The translations under genes were made by a program, and so were the position numbers. Under the pieces are notes generated by a model. That model was not told where the DNA came from. It saw only the letters and a list, made by a program, of their open reading frames with translations, and made no database searches. From positions 1 through 64,000 of the IMG/VR virus record IMGVR_UViG_3300037488_003551: DNA of 64,000 bases; one strand, given 5' to 3'. The first letter of the stretch is position 1; every line of letters begins with the position of its first letter. This DNA comes from a virus. Positions 12,320 through 53,463 of this stretch are shown piece after piece.

Positions 12320-13785
12320 CAGATTCTCCGACCATCATCTCTGGAATTAAGAACATCACCAAACAGGATGTGATTGATTATTACAAAGACCCGATGGTGC
12401 GGGAAAACCTTTTGCGCGCTACCGGAGACAAGCCAGTCCTGACAGTGATGCAGCGTGAACCTGGGACGCCTATCTATCGGCGCTATGACAGGAAGAAGCA
12501 GCCCATCCTTTTGAACATGGACTCGCTGGACGACCTCGCTAAACAGCGTACCGTAGAGTTCCACGCTACACTGGGCGAGGGTACTCGAGAAATATGGGTA
12601 GACTTAGACCCAGGTGCGGCTGTATCCCCTGGAAATCTCAAGAGAACCGTTAAGCACGTCGATGACCTTTTGAAGAAGTTACCTGAGGTCAAAGATACCC
12701 GCATCGTCTTTTCAGGTGGGCGCGGCTACCATGTCCGGGCTGAACTCGAGAAAGAACTGAAGACGAACGCTGCCAAGAAGCTCCTACAGAAAACGCTGCA
12801 GCCTTTGTATGACTCGGGGTCGACGCTTGTCGACGTTCCTCCGAGAGGCAATCAGATACGGCTGGATACCTCGACGTTTCATCCAAAAGGGTCTCTGCGA
12901 GCTCCCTACTCTCTGAATGCGACAACTGGCCTTGTGGCGCTTCCCGTTGCGCGTGAGAAGCTAGATACATTCAATCCACAAGCCGATGCGAGTATAAAGA
13001 GCGTCCTCTCTCAAAAAGACATTGGAGAGTTTGCTCCGGGTATCCCTCGTGACCGTACGACGCAGTTGCTTCCGACAGCTTCAGGTAAAAACTGGACGTT
13101 GGCGGTGCAGAAGCACGTTGCGGATAAAGCAGGCCCGCATTGGGACCTTCGACTGGTAGACCCGGAGACACAGTATGCTCATTCTTGGGCTGTTCCTAAG
13201 GCTTCTTTTCCAGACAATAAGCCGCGTTTGGCGTTGCAGATGCCGACCCACAGCGCAGGCTACGCCCTTACTTTCGGGGAAAAAGGACCACAGAAAATTC
13301 AAGAGGGTTATGGCAAGGGAACTGTTGAGATGGCCCACAAAGAGCCGGTGCAGGTGTTAGAAGTCAACCCGAACAAGGTTGTATTCCAGCGCGGCTCCGG
13401 AGACACTCTGGCGATGCATCGAACGAGTGAGAATAAATGGTTGCTCCGAAAGGCGACGAACATGACTGAGAAGACTGCTTTTTACACTGCGGGTTATCGC
13501 ACTGCTCTTTTGAAGTTAGGTGTAGCGGTAACTAAGCCTGTTGGTATGCGGGGAAAAGAAATGTCCCATGGAGAAGGGAATCGTCCTCTTGAAAGTTCTG
13601 ACACGCATCTTCCCGCGGGGCAAGTGGCGATGATGTTCCAGGGTCTTCCGAACGCTAAGCGGCGTGGAGGCGGAGTCACTCTTGAAAATGTGCCTGCGGT
13701 GGGAGACAACAACGCTGAATGGGGTCCCGCACAAGATGTTATGCAATTCAACGGCGCCTCTCCTTATCTATCAGGACGCGAGTAA
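12316..13785 (+). CDS. LigD-like protein: AEP primase-polymerase domain plus 3'-phosphoesterase domain, no ligase domain
   Basis: AEP motifs VEFH, WVDLDPG, FSGGRGYHV, IRLD, APYSL; PE motifs VQKH.A...HWDLRL, SWAVPK, RLA...TH, YGKGTV. Confidence 0.9.
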   Translation: MTDSPTIISGIKNITKQDVIDYYKDPMVRENLLRATGDKPVLTVMQREPGTPIYRRYDRKKQPILLNMDSLDDLAKQRTVEFHATLGEGTREIWVDLDPGAAVSPGNLKRTVKHVDDLLKKLPEVKDTRIVFSGGRGYHVRAELEKELKTNAAKKLLQKTLQPLYDSGSTLVDVPPRGNQIRLDTSTFHPKGSLRAPYSLNATTGLVALPVAREKLDTFNPQADASIKSVLSQKDIGEFAPGIPRDRTTQLLPTASGKNWTLAVQKHVADKAGPHWDLRLVDPETQYAHSWAVPKASFPDNKPRLALQMPTHSAGYALTFGEKGPQKIQEGYGKGTVEMAHKEPVQVLEVNPNKVVFQRGSGDTLAMHRTSENKWLLRKATNMTEKTAFYTAGYRTALLKLGVAVTKPVGMRGKEMSHGEGNRPLESSDTHLPAGQVAMMFQGLPNAKRRGGGVTLENVPAVGDNNAEWGPAQDVMQFNGASPYLSGRE

Positions 13786-15587
13786 TGGCAGATCGAACTG
13801 ACACGTTTGGACGCTTACTGGTAAACGACCTGTTGCCAGAGGAGCATAAAGTCTCAGGACCAATAACGAAGAAATCTTTCTATAAGATGCTCGATACGAT
13901 GTCTCGAGAAACTCCAGATGTGTATATAAAAGTTGTTCCAGAATTAAAAAGACTTGGAGACCGCCTTGCCACGACTGAAGGTCTTTCCGTGGGGTTGGAC
14001 GATATCACCCCTGATTATAAAGATCGGAATTCTACCCTTGAACCTTTTGTTAAGCGTTTCGATGCGGCTAAAACAGATAAAATCCGTAGTCAAATAGCGG
14101 AAGAAGCGCACGGTAAAATGCAAGAAGTTGCGATGCGTAATCCGGGGACGATGACGATGCAGGTGCAGAGCGGCGCTCGTGGAAAGCCCGTTCAGTACAC
14201 ATCGATTATTTCTACTCCGACATACGCGCGTGATGGAAAAGGGAGTACTGAGCCGTGGCTCATCCGAAAATCTTATAGCGAAGGACTCTCGCCTGCTGAC
14301 AATTGGGTAGCAGGTAGTGAGGCTATTTTAAATACGATTAGCACTTATACCGCCGTCTCAGAGCCAGGTGAACTTGCAAAAGTGCTCGTAAGTAATATGA
14401 GCAATATCATCATAACCGAGGATGACTGTGGAACTACTAATGGTGTGTTTGTGTCTACTTTGTCTGCTACTGCTTTGGACCGGTACCTCGCAAAAGAAGT
14501 AGGTGGATTTAAACATAACACGCTTATAACATCTCTTAATCAATCCAAGCTTGCGAAGATTTCTCCGACCATTCTCGTACGCTCTCCGATGACCTGTGAA
14601 GCGGGGGATGGCGTTTGTCAAAAATGTCAGGGTCTAAATGAAAAGGGGAGCACGCACGACATCGGCACGAACGTAGGTGTGCGCGCGGCTCAGGCGATGG
14701 CGGAACCTCTCACGCAGTTTGCTCTCGGCGCCAAGCACGGTATTCGTACAGCTAAAGATGAGCGAATTAGAGTCAAAGGAATTCAAGGTCTTCGACAGAT
14801 TACGGAGTCTCCTCAGCAATTTATAAACAAGGCGACGCTCGCTCAATTGAACGGGACCGTGGAGCGTATTGCGGTGGCTCCTCAAGGCGGTCATTACGTT
14901 TTTGTGGGCGGACAGCAGCATTACGTGACGCCCAATTTAGACGTTATCGTTAAAGTTGGAAGTCCAGTTCAAGCGGGGGACGCTCTCAGTCAGGGCATAC
15001 CAAAGCCGGACGAAGTCGTACGCTTGAAGGGACTCGGAGTAGGGCGCCAGTACATGGTCGATACTTTGGCCGGTCTCTATAAAGACCAGGGTCGAGAATT
15101 AGACCAACGCCATTTTGAGCTCCTCGCCAAAGGTGAGCTCAATTATGTGCGCGTTTTGAAGGACCCGAGTCGGAATTTCATTCCTGGCGACGTTGTTAGT
15201 TACAATGTCCTGCGCAATGAATTGAAGAAGGGTACCAAAGTGATGCCCGTGGACGAGGCTGATGGTGAGACTTTAGGCAAGGCCTACTTTCATTTCTACT
15301 CAGGAACGCGCGTCACTCCGCAGATCCAAGCGTATCTCAAACAACAGGGAATCAAGGAAGTGGTCATAGCTCCCCGTGCGCCTGAAGTAGAATTCATCAT
15401 GAAAGCCGCCACCCGAGCACCCCTTTTGAATCCGGACTGGATGGCTCGTTTGGCTCATCGGAATCTGAAAACGACGGTGATGCAGGCCACGCACTTCGGA
15501 GAATCGTCAGATATTCATGGGACGCATCCTGTTCCGGCGTACATAACGGGCGTAGAATTCGGGCAAGGTCCAAAAGGAAAGTACTGA
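13785..15587 (+). CDS. RNA polymerase beta' C-terminal half (bridge helix, trigger loop, Zn site)
   Basis: SGARG, SYSEGLSP, EPGEL, ITEDDCGT, RSPMTC...VCQKCQG, VGVRAAQAMAEPLTQ..H, RHFELL; ATG overlaps the upstream TAA. Confidence 0.93.
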   Translation: MADRTDTFGRLLVNDLLPEEHKVSGPITKKSFYKMLDTMSRETPDVYIKVVPELKRLGDRLATTEGLSVGLDDITPDYKDRNSTLEPFVKRFDAAKTDKIRSQIAEEAHGKMQEVAMRNPGTMTMQVQSGARGKPVQYTSIISTPTYARDGKGSTEPWLIRKSYSEGLSPADNWVAGSEAILNTISTYTAVSEPGELAKVLVSNMSNIIITEDDCGTTNGVFVSTLSATALDRYLAKEVGGFKHNTLITSLNQSKLAKISPTILVRSPMTCEAGDGVCQKCQGLNEKGSTHDIGTNVGVRAAQAMAEPLTQFALGAKHGIRTAKDERIRVKGIQGLRQITESPQQFINKATLAQLNGTVERIAVAPQGGHYVFVGGQQHYVTPNLDVIVKVGSPVQAGDALSQGIPKPDEVVRLKGLGVGRQYMVDTLAGLYKDQGRELDQRHFELLAKGELNYVRVLKDPSRNFIPGDVVSYNVLRNELKKGTKVMPVDEADGETLGKAYFHFYSGTRVTPQIQAYLKQQGIKEVVIAPRAPEVEFIMKAATRAPLLNPDWMARLAHRNLKTTVMQATHFGESSDIHGTHPVPAYITGVEFGQGPKGKY

Positions 15588-15590
15588 AAA

Positions 15591-16088
15591 ATGTACCAGT
15601 ACGGATATAATGCGGCCCTGCATCAGTTGGGTTTAGAGAAGAACGCAGCTTTCTTTCCAGGAGCGGCAGCTCGATTCATGCCGAAACTCAAATCTTTTGG
15701 TAAGGCTGTCGGCACAAATCTTTTTGGACAACCTAAAAAGTTCGTAGGTGAGTTGCGGTCTGGAACGGCATTTGGTAAAGACAGTCTACTTGCAGAAGGA
15801 TTTAAAGCGCCAAAACTCTGGCAAAAAGCGCTCATGTATGGTCTTCCCGCGGCTTCAGCTGTTCAGACTTTGCGGAGTGATGACCCAGATAAAGCAGGGT
15901 CTATTGGAGGTTTAATCGGTGGTACAGCTTTAAGTACAGCTGCTTTTGGACCTTTTGGTATGCTAGGAGCGATACCTACAAGTATGGCAGGAGAATTTAT
16001 CGGTAAGCGTCTCGTACACGGTACGCAGCGTATATTGGGAGTTGGAAATCAACAGGCTCCGCAATATACTTCTTTGCAACAACGGTAA
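15591..16088 (+). CDS. Glycine-zipper putative internal-head protein with class A leader
   Basis: MYQYGYNAALHQLGLEKNAA; GGLIGG hydrophobic segment. Confidence 0.6.
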   Translation: MYQYGYNAALHQLGLEKNAAFFPGAAARFMPKLKSFGKAVGTNLFGQPKKFVGELRSGTAFGKDSLLAEGFKAPKLWQKALMYGLPAASAVQTLRSDDPDKAGSIGGLIGGTALSTAAFGPFGMLGAIPTSMAGEFIGKRLVHGTQRILGVGNQQAPQYTSLQQR

Positions 16089-16138
16089 CTATATGAGCCG
16101 TGGCACGTTTACCCGGCTACTGAAAGTGAGAAGACTGA

Positions 16139-16591
16139 ATGAATCCTGAACTCATTAAACAGGCGTACGCGTACGGTGCCGCGGTAGCTCTTCAGGAACT
16201 CGGCTTTAGTGCGCAACAAGCACAGGCAGGCGGAGTAAAGCTTGCTTCTGAGAAGATGGCTGAAGGCGAAGAAATGAAAGATCCTGCTCTGTGGCCTGCG
16301 GCTATGTTTGGACCTACGGGTGCAGCGATTGCTGCGCCTGAAGGCAAGAGGATGAGCGCCTTTGGACGTACACTAGGAGGTCAAACTCTTGGTATGCTTG
16401 GGGGCGGCGCTGTTGGTGGTGGTCTGGGTGCTGGTGTCGGTGCTCTAGCGGGACTTCTTAGCCGTGGAAAATTTAGACCAGGGCAAGGTGCTGCTCTTGG
16501 TGGATTGGGTGGTGGATATCTCGGTATGGGTGGCGGCGGTATGTACGGTGCGGCAAAGGGATATCAGAGCGCCCTAGACAAAGAGGAATAA
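16139..16591 (+). CDS. Glycine-zipper putative internal-head protein
   Basis: KQAYAYGAAVALQELG..KLASEKMA; long GxxxG arrays. Confidence 0.6.
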   Translation: MNPELIKQAYAYGAAVALQELGFSAQQAQAGGVKLASEKMAEGEEMKDPALWPAAMFGPTGAAIAAPEGKRMSAFGRTLGGQTLGMLGGGAVGGGLGAGVGALAGLLSRGKFRPGQGAALGGLGGGYLGMGGGGMYGAAKGYQSALDKEE

Positions 16592-22607: not shown

Positions 22608-24689
22608 ATGATGAGAAAAATCGTCCACCTCGACCCTTACTTCCCGACTGGTGAGCTCACGATTCAGCCGGTTGTATTGTGGTCGGGGAGTAAGAAGTTT
22701 GTCGAACCCATCACGAAGCATGCAAGTGTTGGGGCAGACTTCTTCAAGACGATTCAGCCGGTACCCGGTCATAGCATCGTTTATGTTCTCGCTGTCAGCG
22801 CTTGGGAGCGTTATGGCGAAAACCGAAATGGTGACGGTTTTCCAGACCAGCCGTATATGGCGCATGCGGGAGGAATTCAAGAAACCGAGACTCTCCAAAA
22901 GCACTACAAATCTTTTGAGTCTGTTGGGAATGTTTTTCTCTCGCACGTTAACACCGACCCCATAAAAGCTGTAGGGCGCGTTATTAAAGCATTCTGGAAT
23001 GACTCGATGAAACGCGTCGAGCTTCTTTTGGATGTGGACAACGCTAAAGCTCCACGTGTGGTTGAGCGAATAGAAGCTGGGGAATATCCTGCGGTTTCGA
23101 TGGGGACGCGCGTTCCCTGGGACGTGTGCTCCCTACCCTCTTGTTTAAATCACGCACCCACCCGTGCCCAGTACTGCGACCACCTGCGTTTTCAAATGCG
23201 GGATGTTGTTAACGGCGTGAAGGTTGCCGCTCTTAATCCGAGCTGCAAATTTTTCGATATTTCTTGGGTGGTGCGGCCGGCAGACCCGAATGCCTATATG
23301 CTCAAGAAGGTTGCTGATGAGGCCTACGAAATCAAATATTCGGGGGCGGCAGCAGGTGAATACTTGGACGAAATGGAAGAGCGTAAGCTCGCGGCGCACA
23401 AGTTAGCGGTAATCGATAAAGTTGTTCAGGGTATTCCAGTCGATGCCAAGTCCGAAAATATCGATCCGATGCACCTACACAACGCCTGTGCAATGCAGCC
23501 GACGGCGATGTCGATGAGTCATGGTCTTCCAGAGCTCTCTGATTCTATCCTCCGGCAGCTGGCCTCGTCCTGCTCTCTTCCAGATATTTTCACGTCTACG
23601 CTTGCGATGGGCATGCCCCTATGCACGCGCGAGGTTGTGAAAATTACGATTTACCGTCAGATGCCTGGCGCCCCAAATATGGACGGAGTCGCGGATGCCG
23701 CGGTCTCCGCGCGTCAGCCTTTGATGGACCTTTTCCAAGAGCATCCGCAGATGTTGGATGCATATGAAGGTGACCTCGACATTGACCAGTGTCATTTGAA
23801 TCCTAAAGTAGCTGAAATCATTGGGACCGGAATGGAAAAACGTTCGGGTATTTATGAGTACTTGAAACGTAAGTACGTTCCTGGAAAGTACCGTGATGAT
23901 GCTACACGACTGACACCCTTTACTGTAACGGACCCGGTATCGGGACAACGTTATGGTACGAATCGACAAGCTGCTATTTTGGCACATGACGAAATCGCTA
24001 AAAAGAATTTACGGAAAGTTCTGGGAGGGGCTGCGGCTCTCGGAGGAGCGTATGGTTTAATTTCTTCTGGGTTGAGAAGTAGAGGATTGTCGAAGTTAAA
24101 TCCTCTAGTTGCAGGCACTCTTGGCGCAGTTGGATTAATGAATATGCCTTCTATGGGGCCGCATTATATGACGGACCAAGGTGTTCCTATTCCTGTCCTG
24201 ACTGAGCTCACCAAAATGAGCGCCGATTCTTCTGGTTTTGCACGTTCTTTAGCGTTACCTCTTTTTGGTACGCTGGGAACGATGGCGCTTTTAGGGATGG
24301 ACCGAAGGCATCGTTTAGCCCAAGGATATGTTCCAGGTAATCCCTACGAGAATGCGCCTCGTCGAGGGATAGATACTCTCAGTACCGCAGCTGCAAATCA
24401 CCCACTTCTTTTTGCAGGATTGGGTACGCTAGGAATGCGCGCTGCAGGGAATACCAGAGCTGCAAAATATCTCGGAGAGAATGTCGCTAAGCCACTTTTT
24501 AATAAAGGGCAAAAGGCTGTCAGTGGTATAGACGAATCCCTTCGAAGATGGGCTCAAAAAACTAGCCAAGAAATAATTGTGGGAGCGTCTATGAAAGCTG
24601 CGTCGGATTCCGTAAGCCTTCCAGTATTAGACATGGACAAAATCGCCGAAAGTCTTGGCGAGATTTTGTTAGGAAACACGGACTTGTGA
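22608..24689 (+). CDS. Prohead maturation protease (N-terminal) with glycine-zipper C-terminal extension
   Basis: NRNGDGFP, FLSHVN (His), AVSMGT (Ser), CSLPSC..CDH, FFDISWV.RPAD..A; lies upstream of the capsid genes. Confidence 0.8.
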   Translation: MMRKIVHLDPYFPTGELTIQPVVLWSGSKKFVEPITKHASVGADFFKTIQPVPGHSIVYVLAVSAWERYGENRNGDGFPDQPYMAHAGGIQETETLQKHYKSFESVGNVFLSHVNTDPIKAVGRVIKAFWNDSMKRVELLLDVDNAKAPRVVERIEAGEYPAVSMGTRVPWDVCSLPSCLNHAPTRAQYCDHLRFQMRDVVNGVKVAALNPSCKFFDISWVVRPADPNAYMLKKVADEAYEIKYSGAAAGEYLDEMEERKLAAHKLAVIDKVVQGIPVDAKSENIDPMHLHNACAMQPTAMSMSHGLPELSDSILRQLASSCSLPDIFTSTLAMGMPLCTREVVKITIYRQMPGAPNMDGVADAAVSARQPLMDLFQEHPQMLDAYEGDLDIDQCHLNPKVAEIIGTGMEKRSGIYEYLKRKYVPGKYRDDATRLTPFTVTDPVSGQRYGTNRQAAILAHDEIAKKNLRKVLGGAAALGGAYGLISSGLRSRGLSKLNPLVAGTLGAVGLMNMPSMGPHYMTDQGVPIPVLTELTKMSADSSGFARSLALPLFGTLGTMALLGMDRRHRLAQGYVPGNPYENAPRRGIDTLSTAAANHPLLFAGLGTLGMRAAGNTRAAKYLGENVAKPLFNKGQKAVSGIDESLRRWAQKTSQEIIVGASMKAASDSVSLPVLDMDKIAESLGEILLGNTDL

Positions 24690-24742: not shown

Positions 24743-25279
24743 ATGGAATTCGCTAAGATGCTCGCCGGTTTTAACGCTCCCGCAGCTGCACAAACTAAAA
24801 CGGCTAGCGTGGACAACACGAAACAGCAGATTGCTAGCGCTGTGGAAGCGACTAAGGTTGCTTCGGCAGCACAATCAACTGATGCTGTGGAGGCTCTTAT
24901 GAAGACAGCGGCTACGTTGGCTGAAAATGAGAAGACAGCTGAGCTGGTACACGCGCACATGAGCGGTCGCGCTTTTGCGCAAGGTGCTATGGAAGTGTTC
25001 GCGGTTGCTGACGCTGCAGCTCAGAAGGTAGCGTCGGAGACTGCTCCTTCGCCCAATGCGTACTACCAAGCAAAGATGGCTGCTGACCAGGAAGCCATGG
25101 TCAAGGCTGCTGCTGAGCAGGGTTATCACGACACGATGACCAAAGCTGCCGCTGAGTACAACCAAGGATACGAAGCAGCGGTACAGGATGCCGTGAAGGT
25201 CGCTGCCAACGAGTTCTACAAGGGTGCGCAAGAGGCCGCGATTATCATCCAGGCCGCTCGCAGCCAAAGGAACGGCTGA
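24743..25279 (+). CDS. Ala-rich putative scaffolding protein
   Basis: About nine K-x-A sites; GY repeats (QGYHD, QGYEA). Confidence 0.6.
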   Translation: MEFAKMLAGFNAPAAAQTKTASVDNTKQQIASAVEATKVASAAQSTDAVEALMKTAATLAENEKTAELVHAHMSGRAFAQGAMEVFAVADAAAQKVASETAPSPNAYYQAKMAADQEAMVKAAAEQGYHDTMTKAAAEYNQGYEAAVQDAVKVAANEFYKGAQEAAIIIQAARSQRNG

Positions 25280-26546: not shown

Positions 26547-27467
26547 ATGTCGTACAATGTTGAAACCTCTACTCATTCCGCGCAGTTCCTGAACAAGTCG
26601 TTCCTCTCCAAGGTTGAGGGCGGCCATGTGAAGGAAGCGGTCGAAGCCAGCTCGCTGTTCATTCGTGAGCGTCTTCGTCAGGCGGCAGCTGTCCGTGAAG
26701 TCATCGTCCCCCAAAGCGTGACCGAAGAGAACATCGACCGTGACGAGAGCACCGACCAGCCGAAGATCATCATCGACAAGGAGCCGAACTCAACGGCTTC
26801 TTTCGTGCAGTTCCAAGGCACCGGTCGCCGCACGTGGTTCAAGGGTCCCCGTTACTCCGTCCGCTTTGGTAAGGTCGAGTCACAGCGATTCACCAAGACC
26901 AAGGCGGAGCTCATGACCTACCGCTCCGACATTCGCAAGATTCTGTCGGACAACTCGGTCATGGATATGGCGGACGAAGAGGATCGCAAGTTCTACGAGC
27001 TCGTCGCCGCGATCATCGCCGCGAACCCGAGCGTACAGCGCACCACGGGCGCTTTCCAGAGCGGCACGTTCAAGGTTGCTTGCCAGGCGATGCTGACCGG
27101 TACGCGCAAGCGTCCTATCGGCAAGCTCCTGCTGAGCAAAGAGCGCTACATGGACGCGCTCGACCTGCCGGCGACCTCCGTCGGTGACGAGATTGCCAAG
27201 CGTCATTTTGACGAGGGCATCGAGTCCTCGCAGAAGCTCTGGGGTCTCCCCGTTGTGACGCACGTCAAGTCGGATATCTATCCGACCGACAAGGGTTGGA
27301 TTTTCTCTCCAACCACGCCGAACAACTTCCTGGGTAACTTCTTCACCCTGCAAGATGCCACTCTGTTCATCAAGCAGGAAGCAGACGTCATCTCCTTCTG
27401 GACCTACGAGTACGTTGGCCTCGGAATCGCCAACACTCTGTCCATGCAGGAAATCGTTTTCAGCTGA
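26547..27467 (+). CDS. Major capsid protein (HK97-fold, putative)
   Basis: FIRERLRQ...REVI, IIDKEP, ELMTYRSDIRKIL...D...EEDRKF, LWGLPVV, YEYVGLGIAN; strongest codon bias in the window; position after protease and scaffolds. Confidence 0.75.
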   Translation: MSYNVETSTHSAQFLNKSFLSKVEGGHVKEAVEASSLFIRERLRQAAAVREVIVPQSVTEENIDRDESTDQPKIIIDKEPNSTASFVQFQGTGRRTWFKGPRYSVRFGKVESQRFTKTKAELMTYRSDIRKILSDNSVMDMADEEDRKFYELVAAIIAANPSVQRTTGAFQSGTFKVACQAMLTGTRKRPIGKLLLSKERYMDALDLPATSVGDEIAKRHFDEGIESSQKLWGLPVVTHVKSDIYPTDKGWIFSPTTPNNFLGNFFTLQDATLFIKQEADVISFWTYEYVGLGIANTLSMQEIVFS

Positions 27468-32327: not shown

Positions 32328-35021
32328 ATGCCTCTATCTAGACCGAACACTGTCGTTTATCAGGAATATGCGGACCTCTCCGTTGTTCCCGCTACCCCAT
32401 TCTTGAACACCCTCATCGTTGGTCCTTGCTATCAGCTGCTGGACTACCTCGATGACAAGGCGGATTGCGCCGCAGGAGAATACGGTACCCTGCAAATGAA
32501 TAACCCACGCACGTCCCCGACGGCTGCGGTGGTTATCGCCACTCCTCCTGAGCTAGAAGCAGGTGCCATTCTCGAAGATAACAGCGTGAAGATTTTCTTC
32601 GATGAGGTGCAGGTCGCATTGAAAGAGGTCACGGGTACTCCTGGAGATGATGCTGGACTTTATTACATCAGCGATAATCTGTTTGCCACTGTGAATGCTG
32701 ATGGCGTACACATCGGTAAACAGTATGCGCAAGCAGGCGATACGCTCATCTGTGAAACATCGGTTACTGCGGATTTCATCAAAACCATAAAAGAATTGGC
32801 CTACACGTTTTATGGTCCGGTACTCGATTTCACAACGTGGGGAGTAGATACCGGCGACATTATTACGGTTGAGAATGATGCAGCTTCTCCTTCTCGCAAT
32901 GGTACCTACACCGTAAAAAAGAAGTATATCGTCGGAGGTTCTGTCCTCGCTACAGCCATTGAAATCGAAAATGCAGCAGCCCTAGAAGGTGACGTAGCAA
33001 ATGCGGACATCACTATCCGCTCTTCGACGGGAACTCTGCGACACACCACCATAGGTGGAGCTCCTGTTTCTTTGGGTGATTGGTGCAATCTCCGCGTAAC
33101 AGAAGATTTCTCGGCTGGACATCCGGTCAGTTGTCTCTGGCGCATCGAGCGTCAACTCAACGATGTCGAACTTGCTTCTACGGATATCACGGTGAACAAC
33201 ACCACGAAGACCGTAACCGTTAAAGCTGGCGTGACAGCAATTGTGAGTACGACCATTGGAGCCAAGCCTGTTACGTTCGCTGAGATGTACATGGAGTACG
33301 CTGCGCTGCGGCAGGACCTCCAAAACGTGGCCGAGGTTTCGTCTTCTTCCGAGGCGATTGCTCTCCTTGGAAAATACGATGCACGTAATCCGCTCTGCGT
33401 AGGTGTGCATGTAGCTCTATATAACACCACGACGCCCATCAAGGTCTATGGTCTCGCCGCGGATACGTTGGCCGGGTACACGGATTTTGTGGAGCGCACC
33501 AGTCATCTCAGCGACATCTACGCGGTGGTCCCACTGACCTACGATACGAGCGTTATCGGTTATCTCAAGGACGCGTGGGAGCGTTACGCTGATGCAGACA
33601 TCGTTCTTCAAACAGGTATTAAGCAGAAATTTCGGACGACCATCGGCGCTGTGGACCTCGTCACACAGAGCGAAGTCATCTCCGCGACCGCAGGCTCGTC
33701 CACGCTGACGAAAGCGGGAACAACTCCGGCAGGAAATTACACGCTGACTCTTTCTGGTCTTTCAGGTCAAACAGCGGATTTCAGTGCTTCTGGCGTTCTT
33801 CCGGGAGACATTGTCAATGTTAAAATTGGTGGCGTAACTGCTGGACCATTTACGGTAGCGCATGTAAATACGGCACTCATTCTTGAAACAGAAGAAGCCC
33901 TCACAGGTTTAGGTATAGCGCGTGACGCAGCCGATACTTTGGATATTACAGACCCAACAGGTATTATCCATCGTTTTACGGCTTTGGTTTATTCGGTAGG
34001 TGTCAAGGGGTTTACTCTTGGTGCATCCGTTCTCGACGCCCTTTATCTCACCCTGAGCTCTTCGACCTCCACGTTCATCACGGACGGCGTGGTCCCGGGC
34101 GACCTGCTCCAGATTCCGACCGACCCCGAGTCCACTTCTTGGACGACCTACGACACCTGGGTCATCGCAACTGTCGATAGCGAGACGCGCGTCACGGTGG
34201 TGAACGGCGGGAACAACACGGCCGACCTACAAAACGAGCTCCCGCATCTCATCAAGCGCACCGCGGCGACTGACCGTGTGGTCTCTACTAGCACGGTCTA
34301 CTTCCGCATCAAGCGCAACATGACCAAGACCGAGCAGGTCAACTACATGCTTGCGGTGGCTCAGAGCTTGGACAGCAAGCGTGCTCTTCTCTGCTACCCC
34401 AACAGCGTGGACATCACCGACCTTATCGATGGTAGTCTGACACGAACGGGTACGGACCCCGAGGTCGCCGCGGCGCAGCCAGGCTACTATCTCGCCTGCC
34501 TCGTTGGCGGCCAGACGGCGAGCCAGCCTTCGCACCAGGGCTTCACGAACCTGGGCGGCAACGGCATCGACCGCATTTACAACTCGAGTGACTACTTCAG
34601 CGAGGAGCAGCTCACCAACCTGTCGAATGGCGGCGTGTACGTCTTCGTGCAGGATGCGCCGGCCGCGCTGCCCTACACCATCCACGAAGTGACGACCGAT
34701 GTTCTCTCCCTCGAGACCGGTGAATACATGCACGTGAAGAATTTGGACTATCTCTCGATGTCTTTCCTCGAGACGCTGCGTCCCTTCATTGGCAAGTGGA
34801 ACATCACACCGGATGCTATTCAGTTCATCACGCAAGCTTTGTATGCGACCATCAACACGCACAAAACTGCATACCGCGCGAGGATTGGAGCGCCGATGAT
34901 TGACGGGACGGTACGCACCGTCTTCCAAAATACGGATGTCTCAGAAGATCGCATCGAAGCGTACGTCGACGCTGACTTGCCAACGGTCCTTAACACCCTC
35001 GGCCTACACTTGGTGGCGTGA
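32328..35021 (+). CDS. Contractile tail sheath protein
   Basis: N-terminal RPNTVVYQE..IVGP; C-terminal QGFTN, LSNGGVYVF, VTTD, E....NLDY, FIGKWNIT, PTVLN; 897 aa with insertion domains. Confidence 0.85.
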   Translation: MPLSRPNTVVYQEYADLSVVPATPFLNTLIVGPCYQLLDYLDDKADCAAGEYGTLQMNNPRTSPTAAVVIATPPELEAGAILEDNSVKIFFDEVQVALKEVTGTPGDDAGLYYISDNLFATVNADGVHIGKQYAQAGDTLICETSVTADFIKTIKELAYTFYGPVLDFTTWGVDTGDIITVENDAASPSRNGTYTVKKKYIVGGSVLATAIEIENAAALEGDVANADITIRSSTGTLRHTTIGGAPVSLGDWCNLRVTEDFSAGHPVSCLWRIERQLNDVELASTDITVNNTTKTVTVKAGVTAIVSTTIGAKPVTFAEMYMEYAALRQDLQNVAEVSSSSEAIALLGKYDARNPLCVGVHVALYNTTTPIKVYGLAADTLAGYTDFVERTSHLSDIYAVVPLTYDTSVIGYLKDAWERYADADIVLQTGIKQKFRTTIGAVDLVTQSEVISATAGSSTLTKAGTTPAGNYTLTLSGLSGQTADFSASGVLPGDIVNVKIGGVTAGPFTVAHVNTALILETEEALTGLGIARDAADTLDITDPTGIIHRFTALVYSVGVKGFTLGASVLDALYLTLSSSTSTFITDGVVPGDLLQIPTDPESTSWTTYDTWVIATVDSETRVTVVNGGNNTADLQNELPHLIKRTAATDRVVSTSTVYFRIKRNMTKTEQVNYMLAVAQSLDSKRALLCYPNSVDITDLIDGSLTRTGTDPEVAAAQPGYYLACLVGGQTASQPSHQGFTNLGGNGIDRIYNSSDYFSEEQLTNLSNGGVYVFVQDAPAALPYTIHEVTTDVLSLETGEYMHVKNLDYLSMSFLETLRPFIGKWNITPDAIQFITQALYATINTHKTAYRARIGAPMIDGTVRTVFQNTDVSEDRIEAYVDADLPTVLNTLGLHLVA

Positions 35022-35470
35022 TGCAAAACGAGTTTTACAAAGCGGGCTACAACGACGCGCTGGTGAAAATGGGAGGCTTTGGAAGCGCTATTGCCAAAGG
35101 CCTTCAGACTGCGGGCGGATGGTTAAAAGGTCTCGGAACAAAAGTGCCAGCGGGTCCTGCTCAGATGTCACTTCCTGGTATGGCCCCTGCCGCGGCAAAA
35201 CCGGGGTGGTTTGCGGGAAAAGCTCAAGGCGCAGCACAGGGCCTAGGCAATTCTCTCAACAATCTCGCAGCTGCTCCGGGACAAACCCTCTGGCAGGGCG
35301 CCGGCAACTTCGGAAAGAACATGCTCGGGATGGGTCAGGCGAATACAACAAGCGGCGTTTTGGGCCGCGGTGCCATGGGCGTTGGCCTAGTGGGTGGCGC
35401 TACGGGTGGTTTCGGAAATAGATCGCAACCGAGACCGGGACAGCTCCCCGGCCCGGGACAGATACAATAG
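35018..35470 (+). CDS. Gly-rich putative cargo protein with class A leader, between sheath and tube
   Basis: EFYKAGYNDALVKMGG; C-terminal glycine zipper. Confidence 0.55.
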   Translation: MMQNEFYKAGYNDALVKMGGFGSAIAKGLQTAGGWLKGLGTKVPAGPAQMSLPGMAPAAAKPGWFAGKAQGAAQGLGNSLNNLAAAPGQTLWQGAGNFGKNMLGMGQANTTSGVLGRGAMGVGLVGGATGGFGNRSQPRPGQLPGPGQIQ

Positions 35471-37842: not shown

Positions 37843-38118
37843 ATGCGAAAAACAGCTGAAGATATTGCGCAGAAGGTGCTAGAAAAGAATGCACTATCTG
37901 TAGCACATGTTCGAAAGGTTCTTTTAAACGCTGACCCTAAAAGAATTCAAAATATGAGGTAGGATAGTCCGGTGATGCGTGTTGCGACAAAAGGTGGGAT
38001 AGGAGAAAGTGAGAGGTTCTTACAGGAATTAGAGCGGCGCCGTTTGGGTTTACCTCCGGTAGATGACTTGGCGGACATTGAAAGGTACGCACGGTCTATT
38101 AAATCTGCTCCGTGGTGA
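37843..38118 (+). pseudogene. Class B-leader gene interrupted by in-frame TAG at 37960-37962 (nonsense allele, readthrough, or two tiny ORFs)
   Basis: TATAATT, AGGAGG SD, then MRKTAEDIAQKVLEKNA; the frame stays open 51 codons past the TAG. Confidence 0.5.
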
Positions 38119-38187
38119 ACTTAAGCAATCAGCCTATAATTCTCAAAAAGTGGGCGCTGACTGCCCCGCATTAAAGGAGTTTTTTCC

Positions 38188-39024: not shown

Positions 39025-39042
39025 TAAGAAAGGACTCTCTCC

Positions 39043-39807: not shown

Positions 39808-39831
39808 GCCAAGTTCTCCTAGAATTAGGGC

Positions 39832-42402
39832 ATGAAAAAGTCAGCCCTTCAAATCGCAGATGCAGTAAGAGCCAAACCTGAAGAACCTAGCGCGTTACGG
39901 AGGGCTGCACCTTGGCTTACCGCGGCCGGGACTGGAGCTCTAGGGTATGGCCTTTTGCGCCGAAGGAGCTTCGCTCCTATTGGGACACAACTGCGGTCTC
40001 TCCAAGAAGCGGCAAAGAATAAGCCTTTTAGTATAGCGACTTCGGGTGGAACGCCTTGGGCACAAAAAATTCGCTCCATGATTATGGGTGCTCCTGTCCA
40101 TACGACCGGAGAAAAGGTGAAAGGAACGGTTCTTCATCACACACCAAACCCTAAAGGTGGGGGTGATATTAATATAAATGCGGGAAATATTACAGACGCT
40201 CTTCAAGACAAAGCTGTCTTTGATCGTGTTATGCGTGAAGGTGTTGGTGCGGGACCTGGAATGGCTTCTTCTCTCCCAAATACAATGCGTCTTGATGAAG
40301 CACTAAAACGCGTAGGAGGAGACCCAAAGCGCTTAAAAGAAATCTATCCAGATTTTATGTTAAAAGCCCGAAGCGAATCAATGGGAAGGGGTATTTTTAA
40401 ATCGTTAGATGACCCCGGCGTAAATGAAGCTATTCAAAATCCAAGTCAATTTATCTTCCAAGAGAAGATGCCCATAAAGAATGAGTTCCGCGTACATACT
40501 ATAGATAACGAGCCGTTTACGGCGACGCACCGTTTTATGCCCAATAAAACGTTACGTGGTTTATGGAATCGAGTGGCTGGTGGAGGAGGCGGAGCTTTCG
40601 TTCCTCTGGTGGGAAAGAGACGAAGAGCTCTCCATGATTTTATTAGGCAGAGCACGGCGCATCTAAAACCAGCGGACGGTAAAAGCCTCTCAGACGTAGG
40701 AGAGTCTATGCATGTTGCCTGGGACGTTGCGGAGCTTCCTGATGGCACGTTCAAGCTTATTGAAGCCAACCCTGTACCGGGTACTATGATGAACCCGGGT
40801 ATTGCACAAAAACTTCAAAAACAAATAACTGGAAGATGGTCTAGACCCGTTGCAGCTTTAGGAGGAACTGCTTTAGCAGGCACATCTGGAGTTGCCGCTA
40901 ATAAGATTTTAGGCGGTCCTTCAAACAATGTAGCGGAGACATCTCCTATGAAAAAAACAGCGGACCAAATCAGTTGGAGCGTTCTGTTAAAGGTCGCAGC
41001 CGGAGCGGAAGGTAATCCCGAAATATGGCGCAAAATGGTAGACCGTATCGCTAAAAGCAAAGGTATACCAAAACCTACTGATGCTCAATTCCAAGAGATG
41101 TTTCCTAAGGATTTTGCAACCTCGGGAAAAACATTAGAAGATGCCATACAAGGTTCTGCTTGGTTTAAGCAGGGCACTTCAAGTGGCATGGGAGCTCAAG
41201 GTAGCAATTGGAATCGGGGATCTAGCGGTGGCGCTTGGGGACCAGGAGCAGATGATGCAGTCGCTGCTACGGAAGCTGCGCGCCAAAGAGAGTTGATGGC
41301 TTTAAGTCTTGTGAGCGGCATGCATAATGTAATGGGTTTAGGCGCGGCTGGAAGTGGAATTGGTACGGCTGCTACTGGGATTCATAGCACAACACAGGCT
41401 AAAACTCCAGAGGAACGCGCAGCTGTTTTAGGCCTGAGTGGAGGACTCGCAGGTTATTCTGGAGGGTCTGCTTTCGATAATTTTAGAAAAGCAAAATTAT
41501 ATAAAGACCTTCAAAATGCTATGTCCAATCCTACTGGTCCGAATTATTCGCAACGAGTAACAGATATATCTAATAAAATTATGAGAAAGCCTAAAGCATT
41601 TTCTCCTCAGCGTATTGGCGGATTAGCAGGTGTTGGTCTGGGTCTAGGCGGAGCTGCACTTTGGAATTATTTAGCCAGAGATAAACCTATGAGTAAGGCA
41701 GCGGCTATTACACCAGAAGAAATAGCTACAGGTTTAAGCGGACGAGCTGCACGTCCAGAAATTACGCTAGCGGAAATCATGGAACTTCGTAACAAACTTC
41801 GCCAAGAAGAATATGCTAAGCGGAGAGGGACACCTATAAAGTGGGGTATAGGTGGTGGCTTATTAGGCGCTGCTATTGGCGCTCTTTCGAGTAGAAAAAA
41901 GGGCTTAGGTAAATTACCCAGAACTTTAATTGAGGCAGGATTAGGAGCCGGTTTAGGCGGCTTTTTAGGAGAAACAAGTCGCAGCTTGGACAGTGATGCG
42001 ATGCTAGACCGCGGAAATATTCTAGGAAGAATAGCTAGAACAGGAAACTTGAAGCTAGTAGCGGATTCAGAAAATGCAAAAGATTACGCTCCCTTCGCAA
42101 TTGGAAGTCAACCAGGCGCTAAACCCTTAACGGAAGAGGAGACACACGCTCTTCGTAATCAAGTGTTAAAACAACGAAGTTTAGGCGGCGCAGTTAGGGG
42201 TGCTCCTTTCGCAGCTCTATCCGGAATACTCGGCGCCGCTGCTAAAGCTCCTCCTGGGGCCATAGCAGAATCTATGGCTTTCCCGCTTTTAACTGGAACG
42301 TACCTCGGAGCAAATAGAGCAGTAGACCAATCAAATACGTTAGTAGATTTGCACAACAGGGGGTATGGCGACCTAGCACGCATCATCCAAAAAGATTGGT
42401 AG
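39832..42402 (+). CDS. Three-module polyprotein: ATP-grasp (RimK-like) ligase plus two glycine-zipper modules
   Basis: FMLKARSESMGRGIF, IFQEKM, EFRVH, AWDV, LIEANPVPG (ATP-grasp); internal modules paralogous to the 42410 and 39043 ORFs. Confidence 0.75.
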   Translation: MKKSALQIADAVRAKPEEPSALRRAAPWLTAAGTGALGYGLLRRRSFAPIGTQLRSLQEAAKNKPFSIATSGGTPWAQKIRSMIMGAPVHTTGEKVKGTVLHHTPNPKGGGDININAGNITDALQDKAVFDRVMREGVGAGPGMASSLPNTMRLDEALKRVGGDPKRLKEIYPDFMLKARSESMGRGIFKSLDDPGVNEAIQNPSQFIFQEKMPIKNEFRVHTIDNEPFTATHRFMPNKTLRGLWNRVAGGGGGAFVPLVGKRRRALHDFIRQSTAHLKPADGKSLSDVGESMHVAWDVAELPDGTFKLIEANPVPGTMMNPGIAQKLQKQITGRWSRPVAALGGTALAGTSGVAANKILGGPSNNVAETSPMKKTADQISWSVLLKVAAGAEGNPEIWRKMVDRIAKSKGIPKPTDAQFQEMFPKDFATSGKTLEDAIQGSAWFKQGTSSGMGAQGSNWNRGSSGGAWGPGADDAVAATEAARQRELMALSLVSGMHNVMGLGAAGSGIGTAATGIHSTTQAKTPEERAAVLGLSGGLAGYSGGSAFDNFRKAKLYKDLQNAMSNPTGPNYSQRVTDISNKIMRKPKAFSPQRIGGLAGVGLGLGGAALWNYLARDKPMSKAAAITPEEIATGLSGRAARPEITLAEIMELRNKLRQEEYAKRRGTPIKWGIGGGLLGAAIGALSSRKKGLGKLPRTLIEAGLGAGLGGFLGETSRSLDSDAMLDRGNILGRIARTGNLKLVADSENAKDYAPFAIGSQPGAKPLTEEETHALRNQVLKQRSLGGAVRGAPFAALSGILGAAAKAPPGAIAESMAFPLLTGTYLGANRAVDQSNTLVDLHNRGYGDLARIIQKDW

Positions 42403-42409
42403 AAAAGAT

Positions 42410-43408
42410 ATGTACAAAACTGCCGAACAGATCAGTTGGAATATCCTACTAAAAGCGGCTGCGAGTGAAGGTGGTAACCCTGAACTGTGGCGCAAGATGG
42501 TAGACCGTATAGCCAAAAGTAAGGGAATGCCAGCGCCTACTGACGCCGAGTTTGCAGAGATGTTTCCTCCTGATTTCGCGACTTCCAGTAAAACAATGGA
42601 AGACGCCATCCAGGGGTCCAAGTGGTTTAACAAGGCAAATGCAGGTCCATCTGCGTCCTCTCCGAGTTCTAATCCGTACGCGGATTACAATCCACGTTCG
42701 AGTTCAAGTTCGAGACAATACTCGTCTCCATTTGATGACTTTTTTTCAAGGTATAACCAGCAGGCAAGACAAAATTCGAATTGGTGGGATAAGACGTGGG
42801 ACGCAGAGAGTCAAGCACGAGCCGAAGCACGTAAAGCTGAGCAGCAAGCGAGTGACGCGCAATGGGAAGAAAGAAGACAGCGGCAAACTCGCGAGTCCGC
42901 AGACCGGGAAAAAGCATACCAAGAAAAACAAAAAGGTTATAGCCGCAGTACCTCGGCATCGACCGAGTCAAATAAGTACTATGACCAAGCTCGCGGTATG
43001 AAGAACCGTGCCGCCGCATATACGGCAGGGCTCCCAACTGCATTGGGTATGAGCGGATTAGCCATTGGAGCTGCGACTGAGGACAAAGATAAACGTAATG
43101 TAATTATGGGAGGTACAGGCGCAGGCGCAGGGGCCTCTATGGGATATGGAAGTGTCCTCGAAGAGAACGCTCGGCGGTTTAGGAATGCTATAAAACCTAT
43201 TCCTTTTTCTGTTGATGAAGGCTTTCAAGTTATGAAGCCTTACAATAAAATGAAAGCTACTCCCCATACAGTTATGGGTGGACTTCTTGGATTAGGTTTG
43301 GGTCTGGGTGGGTCTCACTTGATACAAAAAGCCTTCTATGACCAAAAGAAGACCCCTATGCGAAAAGCCGCTTCTGAAATTGCGGCATCGATTCTTAGAA
43401 ATTATTGA
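42410..43408 (+). CDS. Glycine-zipper cargo protein with class B motif at both ends
   Basis: MYKTAEQISWNILLKAAA...; C-terminal MRKAASEIAASIL. Confidence 0.65.
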   Translation: MYKTAEQISWNILLKAAASEGGNPELWRKMVDRIAKSKGMPAPTDAEFAEMFPPDFATSSKTMEDAIQGSKWFNKANAGPSASSPSSNPYADYNPRSSSSSRQYSSPFDDFFSRYNQQARQNSNWWDKTWDAESQARAEARKAEQQASDAQWEERRQRQTRESADREKAYQEKQKGYSRSTSASTESNKYYDQARGMKNRAAAYTAGLPTALGMSGLAIGAATEDKDKRNVIMGGTGAGAGASMGYGSVLEENARRFRNAIKPIPFSVDEGFQVMKPYNKMKATPHTVMGGLLGLGLGLGGSHLIQKAFYDQKKTPMRKAASEIAASILRNY

Positions 43409-44823
43409 GTCGTATCTCTCTGTAGAAGTCGCATTAATTGATTATTCAAATCTTTTTTGTTCTTCGACATATCTGCTAATACATCTTCTACTCCAATTGG
43501 GTCCTTTTTTGTTATTCTCTGCCAAAGGTTGGCTTGTGGATGCGTGACGTATTGCTGGACAAGAACGTTACGCTTGTCCTCAGGTAAATCTGTGTGTGAA
43601 CCATGCCGAATCGCACGTCCAATAACCTGGTCGAGTTTTTCTTCATTCCAGTGAGGCTCTAAAACTTGGACCAGCCGCGTCCCTTTTAAGTCCAGACCTT
43701 CGCCACCTGCGGATGAGAGGAGCAAGGCCCGCAATTTCCCAGCGTTGTAATCGTCGATGGCAGCCTGGCGCTCTCCTTTTGGTACTGACCCCGTAAAAAG
43801 TTTGCTAGGAATTCCCTGCGATTCAAGTTGCTGCTGGTATTCGGATAGGTTGTTTAGATAATTGGAATATACGATGGCTTTGGAAGTAGGGTCAGACTTA
43901 ATACGCTTAGCTAGTTCTTGAACCGCGTACATTGTTTTGGGAGAGGCTTCGCCACGAACATACTTATTAGTGGAACCTGATATCTGTCTAGCCTGCGATT
44001 CAAATTTATTAAACGCTGAAAGTTCTTTCCCAGCAGGCAAAGCGCCATGCTCCAACTTTTTACGCAGACTTCGTGGAAGTGTTCCCCATGCGGCAGCGTG
44101 TAATCGCGTTTGCAGATCCGACATAGGAACGCGTACACGCTCGTCCATACGCGTTGGGAAATCCCCACTCGTATTGTCTTGATAATCTACCCACTTTTGG
44201 AGGACGCCCTTGAGCTCATCCGTATTTTTCAATACAGGCTTCATAGGCTTTCCTCGAAGGCGGTACCACCAACTTGGATTTCTTGGGGGTTTACTGATAT
44301 ATTTTTCGTTGAAAGTAGCTCCCACAGGAAGAACAGATTTACCTGCTGCGATGTTGACAAGCGGAGCTATATCGGAAGGCCTGTTATATACAGGCGTTGC
44401 AGTCAAAAGCATCCGTTTAGCCGCGGGATATTGCGCGAGAAGTTTATTAAGACCTGTAGATGTCTCGCGAGCTTTATGCGCTTCGTCTACAACTAAAAGG
44501 TCAGAGGGGATTGTTTCACCTGATAGCGCATCTCTCTGCTGACTTCGTACCTGGATATTATTAGGACCTTTGAGATGCTTGGCAATTTCCTTTTGGTAGT
44601 TGGGAACCAAAGATGCGGGAGCTAAGACGGTCGTATTTCCACTTTGTCCCGCAGCTGCCGCGAGGGAACTTAACGTTTTTCCTGTGCCTAACCCGTGTGC
44701 TACAACCAGCCCCGGCTGTTTTTTAAGACGGTCTACTACGCGCTGTTGATGCGGGAGTAACTGCGTTAAAACTTCCGCTGCAGTTTTATTGAATATTCCA
44801 GAAGGAATGGTCTTCGGTTTCAT
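43402..44823 (-). CDS. Second SNF2-family helicase, with N-terminal KTAA site
   Basis: HGLGTGKT, DEAH, LTATP, GGEGLDL, QVIGRAIRHGSH; leaderless start after TAAAATT. Confidence 0.9.
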   Translation of the reverse strand: MKPKTIPSGIFNKTAAEVLTQLLPHQQRVVDRLKKQPGLVVAHGLGTGKTLSSLAAAAGQSGNTTVLAPASLVPNYQKEIAKHLKGPNNIQVRSQQRDALSGETIPSDLLVVDEAHKARETSTGLNKLLAQYPAAKRMLLTATPVYNRPSDIAPLVNIAAGKSVLPVGATFNEKYISKPPRNPSWWYRLRGKPMKPVLKNTDELKGVLQKWVDYQDNTSGDFPTRMDERVRVPMSDLQTRLHAAAWGTLPRSLRKKLEHGALPAGKELSAFNKFESQARQISGSTNKYVRGEASPKTMYAVQELAKRIKSDPTSKAIVYSNYLNNLSEYQQQLESQGIPSKLFTGSVPKGERQAAIDDYNAGKLRALLLSSAGGEGLDLKGTRLVQVLEPHWNEEKLDQVIGRAIRHGSHTDLPEDKRNVLVQQYVTHPQANLWQRITKKDPIGVEDVLADMSKNKKDLNNQLMRLLQRDTTQ

Positions 44824-47794: not shown

Positions 47795-47796
47795 CT

Positions 47797-49206: not shown

Positions 49207-49217
49207 GGTGATTAGAG

Positions 49218-50026: not shown

Positions 50027-50039
50027 CATATAATTGGGC

Positions 50040-51580: not shown

Positions 51581-51598
51581 CTGAGTTATAATTGGAGG

Positions 51599-52398: not shown

Positions 52399-52402
52399 GA
52401 AC

Positions 52403-52960
52403 TCAGCCGAACAATCCGAGGGCTTCTTGGAGTTGGGGCTGTACCGACCGATTTTGGAAGAGGCTGTTTAGGATAGGGGTCTGCTGCTGAGCTTGGAGGA
52501 GTTGGTCCATTTGACGAAGTTGGGTCGCTCGCTCAGGGAAAGCTCCCGCGAATTGATTCTGCTGAACGATATTGACCGGAGTCTTAGGAGCAGCTTGAAG
52601 GCGTATGGCTGCAGGGTCATAACCTGGGAGATTCTTAGCTCGGGCTGCAGCCGGTACGCTTGCAGCTGGGACTTGTTCTGCTCTCGTTCTGAATGGAGCT
52701 TGCGGAACAACTGTTCTAGACTTTAATTCTTCCATGAATTGAAGTTGCGTAGGGGTAGGAGCACCGGGTTTTACCGTAGCACGTGCAAGCGGATTCAGTC
52801 CCGTATTTTGAACGGATGTCGCCGCGGAGCCTGGAGGAAGTGGCGTCTTCCGGGAGAAGAGTGTTTTAGCTGCGCGTGTAACTGAATCTAGGATGCCAGC
52901 TTCCTTCTGGAATCCTAGGTCTACTAGTGCTTGTGCGTACCCTACTTGCTGGAAGTTCAT
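52403..52960 (-). CDS. P/Q/A-rich cargo-like protein with class A leader
   Basis: MNFQQVGYAQALVDLGFQKEAG. Confidence 0.6.
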   Translation of the reverse strand: MNFQQVGYAQALVDLGFQKEAGILDSVTRAAKTLFSRKTPLPPGSAATSVQNTGLNPLARATVKPGAPTPTQLQFMEELKSRTVVPQAPFRTRAEQVPAASVPAAARAKNLPGYDPAAIRLQAAPKTPVNIVQQNQFAGAFPERATQLRQMDQLLQAQQQTPILNSLFQNRSVQPQLQEALGLFG

Positions 52961-53463
52961 TGGTAACCCATTGGCATCTGTTGCTGGCCGTATTGCTGCA
53001 TGGGTTGGCTAGGAGGTGGAGCTCCCATACCCGTTACATACCCTAAGCCACCTGCTCCGGCACCAGCTAGACCCACACTCATGAGGGGATTTCGTCGGAT
53101 ACGGTTCAGCATCCCCCCGCCCGCTGCAGCTTGAGGTGGAGGCGCCGAGGCGGCAGGAGACGCGGGAGGAGGAGCTCCCGGGGGCGCAGCCGGAGCCGCT
53201 GTTTGTCCTGCAGGTGCTTTGGGCTTAACACCTGCGAAGGCGTCCTCTGCCCGTCCTGTTGCGTTGGCTCCAGGAGGTTTACGAGGAGTCCGACCAGCTG
53301 CGAACCTCTCGACATCGTCCATGGCCGTAACTCCTGGACCTGCTTTTGGAACCGCTTTCGGCGCTCGACTAAAAAGCTGCTTTAACCAACCAAAGCCTGC
53401 CGCTGTTTTCTCAAGCCCCAAATCTGACAGGGCTGAATGGTATCCAATTTCAATCAAATTCAT
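52957..53463 (-). CDS. P/A-rich glycine-zipper cargo-like protein with class A leader
   Basis: MNLIEIGYHSALSDLGLEKTAAG; GGAGG SD and TAGAATT upstream; start re-assigned to 53463. Confidence 0.65.
   Translation of the reverse strand: MNLIEIGYHSALSDLGLEKTAAGFGWLKQLFSRAPKAVPKAGPGVTAMDDVERFAAGRTPRKPPGANATGRAEDAFAGVKPKAPAGQTAAPAAPPGAPPPASPAASAPPPQAAAGGGMLNRIRRNPLMSVGLAGAGAGGLGYVTGMGAPPPSQPMQQYGQQQMPMGYQ

Follow-up and report, generated by a model that had tools for sequence, protein, structure and literature searches.

The first 64 kb of a 172,892-bp IMG/VR viral contig (97% complete), referred to here as the window, encodes several copies of a peptide unit of ~20 residues, (F/Y)-x-x-G-Y-x-x-A-L-x-x-L-G, which we term the class A tag. 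The tag is modular and conserved in relatives, it stands on a narrow repertoire of otherwise dissimilar proteins, and it is adjoined by a short K-x-A box that clusters in the proteins of the phage head. Our favoured reading, which we put forward tentatively, is that the class A tag may be a modular peptide for head assembly or targeting that works together with maturation sites, comparable to the capsid-targeting sequence (CTS) of T4, in one lineage of large phages that carry a virion RNA polymerase (RNAP).

Genome-wide scans covered the six-frame translation of the 172,892-bp genome or its ~1,900 open reading frames (ORFs). The strict pattern GY..AL..LG occurs four times in the six-frame translation, against 0.01 expected from mononucleotide shuffles and 0.005 from shuffles of residues within ORFs, while a looser pattern occurs five times against ~0.5 expected; a chance origin of the tag is ruled out by the shuffles. 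A profile built from the five copies recovers exactly those five among the ~1,900 ORFs (domain expectation values, E, of 1e-10 to 1e-13; next best E 0.79). All five lie in the window, one within the gene of a LigD-like enzyme (13465-13521) and the others at the gene starts 15591, 35021, 52960 (minus strand) and 53463 (minus strand). Every copy sits 4-10 residues past a Met. For four of them this Met is a true protein start, at which independently made gene calls in the protein collection also begin (P0006, P0019, P0002, P0005). The motif had been noticed in a sequence-only reading of the window, and the peptides quoted there were all found in place, but two of its entries needed amendment: the start given as 35018 is an ATG at 35021, and the protein starting at 16139 drops out as a member, its profile E of 24 being non-significant and its helix starting only at residue 10, past a K-Q-A box. 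The carriers, together with the 16139 protein, are as follows.

12316..13785, plus strand: LigD-like enzyme (Prim-Pol plus 3'-phosphoesterase; PF21686 at 7e-17); class A tag internal, followed by a tail of ~90 residues
13471..13521, plus strand: K-T-A box (residues 386-388) directly before the tag core FYTAGYRTALLKLG (residues 389-402) of that enzyme
15591..16088, plus strand: small basic protein directly past the RNAP beta' C-half gene; leader MYQYGYNAALHQLG followed by L-E-K-N-A (15591-15647)
16139..16591, plus strand: Gly-rich small protein; K-Q-A box (residues 7-9), then a weak tag-like helix YAYGAAVALQELG
35021..35470, plus strand: Gly-rich basic protein between the probable sheath and tube genes; N-terminal tag MQNEFYKAGYNDALVKMG with no K-x-A box after it
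52403..52960, minus strand: P/Q-rich basic protein; leader MNFQQVGYAQALVDLG followed by F-Q-K-E-A
52957..53463, minus strand: Pro/Gly-rich basic protein; leader MNLIEIGYHSALSDLG followed by L-E-K-T-A

The small carriers are 147-185 residues long; Gly, Ala, Pro and Gln abound in them, and their Gly-rich segments stay under transmembrane hydropathy; the net charge is +7 to +10 in four of them and +1 in 16139. T4 internal proteins are likewise small and basic. The 53463 gene is translationally coupled to the 52960 gene by an ATGA overlap, and no shared promoter was visible by eye upstream of the tagged genes. Pfam and PHROG searches of the tagged proteins gave matches for the LigD-like enzyme only. 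Its phosphoesterase domain matches PF13298 at 3e-6 (27.7 bits, under the 31.1-bit cutoff of that family), and both the Prim-Pol and the 3'-phosphoesterase domains are precomputed on the homologues P0011, P0012 and P0014. An ATP-dependent ligase domain found no match in this protein, where only the tag and the ~90-residue tail follow the phosphoesterase. What had been described as a C-terminal appendage on the enzyme is indeed present, but it is internal, at residues 389-402 of 489. The tail past it keeps motifs across relatives, namely (L/M)-P-A-(G/S)-(Q/D)-(L/V)-A, then W-x-P, then G-(P/A)-S-P, and a search for an internal ribosome-binding site before the tag gave just a weak AAGG.

The tag is conserved in relatives with RNAPs 53-62% identical to that of the window. 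The gene past the beta' C-half gene has the leader in 22 of 22 loci whose DNA extends beyond the beta' C-half gene, and G5, G14, K17 and A19 are invariant in all 15 aligned sequences of this gene, which are 29-78% identical to the window copy. The fused LigD form, with its tag ~100 residues from the C-terminus and directly past the phosphoesterase, is kept in at least seven relatives (L003, L006, L019, L021, L022, L024 and the complete genome G001), down to 53% RNAP identity. The 35021, 52960 and 53463 copies are confined to the window's close clade, and the sets of tagged genes differ between relatives: G003 holds all five copies, G001 just two clear ones, and L019 has four tagged genes around its RNAP genes, two of them extra small ORFs. 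In more distant relatives, orthologues of the 35021 protein (L061-L064, and G001 at ~33650-34290, minus strand) have an N-terminal region of 45-70 residues with 2-4 K-x-A boxes and a 'GY(S/P)..(V/I)K.AF' segment replacing the tag.

Modularity is seen in the metagenomic protein P0023, whose leader equals the 52960 leader over 22 residues and whose body is unrelated, with complete divergence directly past K-E-A-G. In another metagenomic protein, P0025, a single chain holds two tags, and K-V-A-S and a Met stand before the second. In three of four families the leader is better conserved than the body (0.87 versus 0.62, 0.98 versus 0.85 and 1.0 versus 0.8), and in the fourth the two are equal (0.39 versus 0.38). 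With the first 24 residues taken off, the bodies give hhalign probabilities of at most 5.7% and a best BLASTP E of 0.013, which comes from low-complexity, Gly-rich sequence; neither method gives a signal of hidden paralogy between the bodies, and the earlier description of the carriers as otherwise dissimilar stands.

Searching more widely, we obtained 23 matches to a tag profile among 5.8 billion proteins (word-indexed, longer proteins) and nine among 1.84 billion representatives (full HMMER), of which eight were inspected and P0027 (1,199 residues) was left out. One TALE-like repeat protein and one UBA-repeat protein among the HMMER matches are evident false positives; otherwise the two collections gave just small phage proteins and LigD-like enzymes, and no wider range of cargo. 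Of the earlier suggestion of a portable tag for arbitrary cargo, a real modular unit, placed N-terminally or internally, is supported; arbitrary cargo is not, the range found in these searches being narrow. Elsewhere in the genome, marginal and non-significant tag-like segments are DLGYHKALGHVGGG near the C-terminus of a 504-residue ORF (genome 94220-95731, at about 95618) and AAGYQAAFEKL within a 354-residue ORF (genome 91261-92322).

In a low-confidence AlphaFold model of the 15591 family (predicted local distance difference test, pLDDT, 56, too weak for a fold search), residues 2-12 form a helix, followed by coil through the K-x-A box and then a helical body. A UBA-like helix-loop, raised by the database match P0026, was considered; that fold is a bundle of three helices, ~40 residues long, and has an MGF loop. 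The likeness stops at the first helix and the LGF turn, the model has one helix then coil, and we treat the resemblance as chance.

The box adjoining the tag reads G-hydrophobic-x-K-x-A-(S/A), and L-G-hydrophobic-x-K-x-A closes the N-terminal leaders. The late proteins of the window contain 90 copies of K.A where 54 would be expected (z 5.6), and KVA and KTA are the two most over-represented tripeptides. The following head-module genes bear on the interpretation of this box.

22608..24689, plus strand: probable head maturation protease in the N-terminal domain, followed by a long C-terminal extension; phrog_18299 'head maturation protease'
24743..25279, plus strand: scaffold-like protein of 178 residues; 8 K-x-A boxes, and GY units at the C-terminus (K-A-A-A-E-Y-N-Q-G-Y-E-A-A-V; NEFYKGA)
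26547..27467, plus strand: major capsid protein; residues 26-31 form a G-x-x-K-E-A box (K-E-A at residues 29-31, 26631-26639)

Besides the eight boxes of the scaffold-like protein, there are seven in the 20816 protein, six in the 17615 protein, four in the protease and one near the capsid N-terminus, and the tail proteins hold two in about 4,000 residues. Clustering of the box in the head module is the distribution expected for a prohead-protease site, and the multiple A-x-E motifs carried by SPN3US propeptides are comparable to it (PMC10052503). The scaffold-like proteins of relatives have 8-11 boxes each. The capsid K-E-A box is conserved in four of four phages compared (the window phage, G001, Salmonella phage Arash and Vibrio phage D181), and may mark the boundary of a short propeptide. 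The protease family phrog_18299 matches 10 of 10 orthologues of the protease (best E 1.1e-12), while Pfam and PDB sequence searches with the protease gave no match.

Arash and D181 are the closest cultured relatives, with the same gene order and a beta' C-half 32% identical to that of the window, and their head proteins are likewise enriched in the box (48 versus 23 and 54 versus 29), with the consensus G-(L/M/I)-x-K-x-A-(S/A). Their scaffold-type proteins, Arash gp220 and gp223 (L028) and the D181 homologues (L029), hold 8-11 copies of this consensus. The searched passages of the Arash paper (PMC10585845) do not mention it as a protease specificity. Using a site matrix trained solely on Arash and D181 (60 training sites, 38 of them with Ala at the candidate P1 and Ser or Ala at P1'), we found 17 sites of at least 9 bits in the window's genome against 4.4 expected, and 14 of the 17 lie in the head module or in tags. 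The leaders of 15591 (12.2 bits) and 53463 (11.6 bits) are among the best, and the K-Q-A site of 16139 scores 10.2 bits. We regard the K-x-A box as a candidate site of the head maturation protease, which on the sequence pattern would cut G-hydrophobic-x-K-x-A from the (S/A) that follows.

The sequence-only reading had also pointed to GY repeats in the scaffold-like ORF 24743. These repeats are present and conserved: the scaffold-like proteins of all relatives end in K-x-A-A-E-x-(F/Y)-x-x-G-Y-x-x-A-hydrophobic units, then EF-x-K-G-A. When the ~1,900 ORFs are ranked with a profile of the scaffold GY unit, the tags of 15591, 35021 and 16139 come 2nd, 4th and 5th, each with a weak E (0.06-3).

A T4-like head-assembly or packaging tag is suggested because the tag adjoins an apparent head-protease cutting site, and the oldest tag carriers stand in the head module, beside the RNA polymerase. 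We infer a series of docking, cleavage, packaging and ejection. The tag would dock its carrier, whether one of several small basic Gly/Pro/Gln-rich proteins or the LigD-type polymerase/phosphoesterase, onto the prohead scaffolding core. The head maturation protease would then cut the adjoining box between K-x-A and (S/A), a cut that would strip the leader from the 15591, 52960 and 53463 proteins and, at the LigD-like box, would free the enzyme from its tag. Once matured, the proteins would stay inside the head alongside DNA and polymerase, and presumably they would be ejected along with both. The polymerase encoded in the window's head module is itself probably packaged, since Arash virions hold homologous RNAP subunits in abundance: the RNAP beta homologue Gp206 had the highest spectral count in mass spectrometry of the virion, and the beta' subunit and a neighbouring helicase were abundant too (PMC10585845). 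A more specific version of this mechanism, which we consider doubtful, is that the tag copies the scaffold's own self-association (GY) unit, so that any carrier would co-polymerise with the scaffolding core and then be freed by a protease of a new G-hydrophobic-x-K-x-A/(S/A) specificity apparently common to Arash and D181. This would be a natural, programmable loading of enzymes and DNA-binding proteins into a capsid beside a virion RNA polymerase.

Several results weigh against a targeting peptide coupled to maturation. The K-x-A had been described as trailing the motif; it does so in three of the five strong copies (15591, 52960 and 53463), but in the LigD-like protein and in 16139 the order is reversed, with the box first, and 35021, the gene of which lies in the tail module, has none. 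Where the box comes first, a cut would leave the helix on a fragment, and the box that stands before the LigD tag is not kept in distant relatives. The K-x-A box could be a structural repeat instead of a cut site. The whole genomes of Arash and D181 lack the class A tag, and the Arash list of 116 'structural' proteins probably includes contaminants. As for the structural predictions, the tag helix is of low confidence (pLDDT about 45), and the idea of an amphipathic helix was dropped on a low hydrophobic moment of just 0.07-0.17. The protease is identified by its PHROG annotation only, the AlphaFold model of its N-terminal domain (pLDDT 50) being too poor for a fold search.

A rival reading is that the tag is a permanent docking helix for a partner other than scaffold or capsid, such as the virion RNA polymerase, the portal or the tail lumen, with the small Gly-zipper-like proteins and the LigD-like enzyme forming an ejection complex and the nearby K-x-A remaining uncut. 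In every relative the RNAP beta' C-half gene stands between the genes of the two oldest carriers, the 35021 copy between the probable sheath and tube genes does without the box, and the helices of the LigD-like protein and 16139 would outlast any cut; Gly-rich hydrophobic segments in the bodies also recall channel-forming pilot proteins. However, the hydropathy maxima of these segments are 1.0-1.4, under usual transmembrane values, the tag resembles units of the scaffold and not any RNAP segment, and K17 and A19 are invariant in 15 of 15 orthologues and belong to some of the genome's best protease-type sites. We consider a permanent docking helix unlikely, while giving it some weight.

It is also unlikely, and in our estimate slightly more so, that the tag is all that stays conserved in a single, rapidly evolving family of small low-complexity proteins, shared by common descent and without any addressing role, with the LigD-like copy and P0025 as accidental fusions. 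The Met kept just upstream of the internal copies is what would be expected after loss of a stop codon, and L019 has a separate tagged ORF of 89 residues adjoining its LigD-like gene. The bodies are alike in composition and layout (basic, with a Gly-rich segment and a P/Q/Y-rich C-terminal end), and the copies away from the RNAP neighbourhood are restricted to the window's close clade. Common descent does not sit well with bodies that are dissimilar even when profile is compared with profile, with a leader better conserved than the body in three of four families and equal in the fourth, or with the identical leader of P0023 on an unrelated body, broken off directly past K-E-A-G. Retention of the fused LigD form down to 53% RNAP identity argues against an accident, and the likeness of the tag to scaffold units also counts against a mere remnant. 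We find it very improbable that the tagged proteins are non-virion membrane proteins (for lysis, superinfection exclusion or membrane remodelling) with the motif as a cytoplasmic or interfacial helix. In favour, their tails hold Gly-zipper-like segments, and 52960 and 53463 are encoded away from the structural block, on the other strand. Against, hydropathy stays short of typical transmembrane values in every segment, no Pfam or PHROG membrane family matches, the 52960 protein is without any hydrophobic segment, the LigD-like carrier is a soluble enzyme, and the genes of the oldest carriers have the portal gene on one side and the capsid gene on the other.

Returning to the head-targeting reading, the concept is already known from T4 and from giant-phage propeptides, and we compared the tag with both. 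The CTS of the T4 internal proteins IPI, IPII and IPIII is portable, in that foreign proteins can be given it too (Mullaney & Black 1996, cited in PMC10052503). Both the CTS and the class A tag are short N-terminal peptides common to unrelated small basic proteins; the CTS is followed by a prohead-protease site, and three of the five strong tag copies by a candidate one. The carriers are head-internal in T4 and putatively so in the window. The two share no sequence similarity, the tag has ~20 residues and the CTS ~10, the candidate site is K-x-A before (S/A) as against (L/I)-x-E in T4, and the tag also occurs internally, past the site. The T4 gp21 rule (L/I)-x-E proved unfit for the leaders, with E at no fixed position and K17 and A19 invariant instead.

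The head propeptides of the giant phages phiKZ, 201phi2-1 and SPN3US have A-X-E sites and come in forms of 20-24 residues and in long forms (PMC10052503, PMC7411985). The window phage would share with this type a head module that encodes a virion RNA polymerase along with many proteins destined for ejection, a protease extended far at its C-terminus, propeptides both short and long, and multiple motif copies within propeptides and scaffold-type proteins. The candidate P1 in the window differs in having no conserved E, with K and A invariant; the layout of the RNAP genes differs, beta being fused to the beta' N-half in the window; and no common addressing peptide is known to have been defined in those phages. 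An (S/A/G)-x-E or A-x-E rule was tried on the leaders and rejected: G-L-E fits 15591 and 53463, and the rule fails in 52960 (Q-K-E), L012, L023, L024 and L025.

Encapsulin cargo-loading peptides and the C-terminal coat-binding helix of P22 scaffolding protein are short portable peptides that bring cargo inside an HK97-fold shell. The window's tag similarly resembles a segment of a scaffold-like protein, whereas those peptides lie at the C-terminus, undergo no proteolytic removal and are unrelated in sequence. Phage prohead proteases have the assemblin fold, and the maturation and release sites of herpesvirus assemblin are cut between Ala and Ser. The candidate site likewise has Ala at P1 and Ser or Ala at P1', and the Lys at P3 and the hydrophobic residue at P5 are specific to the window's phage group.

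The block in which the oldest carriers lie runs in the order portal, RNAP beta-beta' N-half fusion, LigD-like enzyme, beta' C-half, small proteins, 825-residue protein, protease, scaffold-like protein, major capsid protein, sheath and spike. The members not described above are these.

Start of block: portal, by synteny with the annotated Arash portal gp204, the window ORF having no family match
6941..12319, plus strand: RNAP beta fused to the beta' N-half, probable virion polymerase, from PHROG matches
13785..15587, plus strand: RNAP beta' C-half; PF04998 at 6e-14, 32% identity to Arash Gp216
Between the small proteins and the probable head maturation protease: 825-residue protein
32328-35021: probable sheath, from a protein-atlas lead only
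36254: gp5-like spike, a weak assignment (Gp5_trimer_C at E 5.7e-4, under the Pfam cutoff)

Arash Gp226, the annotated major capsid protein, is 38-39% identical to that of the window. Upstream of the portal gene are a probable endolysin (49-1377, minus strand; Amidase_2 weak and under the Pfam cutoff, PG_binding_1 domain clear), a PD-(D/E)XK nuclease (1182-2090) and a second SNF2 helicase (2423-4474). The other SNF2-type helicase (43402-44823, minus strand) starts MKPKTIPSGIFNKTAAEVL, has a K-T-A box at residues 13-15, and is dropped by the class B profile. A second modular leader, M-(K/R)-K-(T/S)-A-x-x-I-A-x-x-V-L-x-K, is found at 37843-43408 of the window, where it starts the 39-residue ORF 37843 and the genes 39043, 39832 and 42410. 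It recurs within the 39832 protein (residue 374), in a C-terminal stub of the 42410 protein, and twice in ORF 92326 (genome 92326-93276); its copies mostly stand past a Met, the exception being that at residue 62 of the 92326 ORF.

The class A tag, the likeness between it and units of the scaffold, and the K-x-A motif seem not to have been described before, no literature search having been aimed at the tag or motif; a search on the CTS and prohead proteases returned only papers that, by title, concern T4, giant phages and phage P1. To our knowledge, hardly any sequence rules that send non-structural proteins into phage heads are known outside T4, and giant phages package RNA polymerases and dozens of ejected proteins for which we know of no defined address signal. 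The lineage described here offers a compact, recognisable tag and a candidate protease motif that can be checked in cultivable relatives. If the head-targeting reading is true, the tag would provide a new handle for loading proteins into capsids, the head cargo of uncultured phages would become predictable from sequence, and it would suggest that a LigD-type end-processing enzyme is delivered along with the genome.

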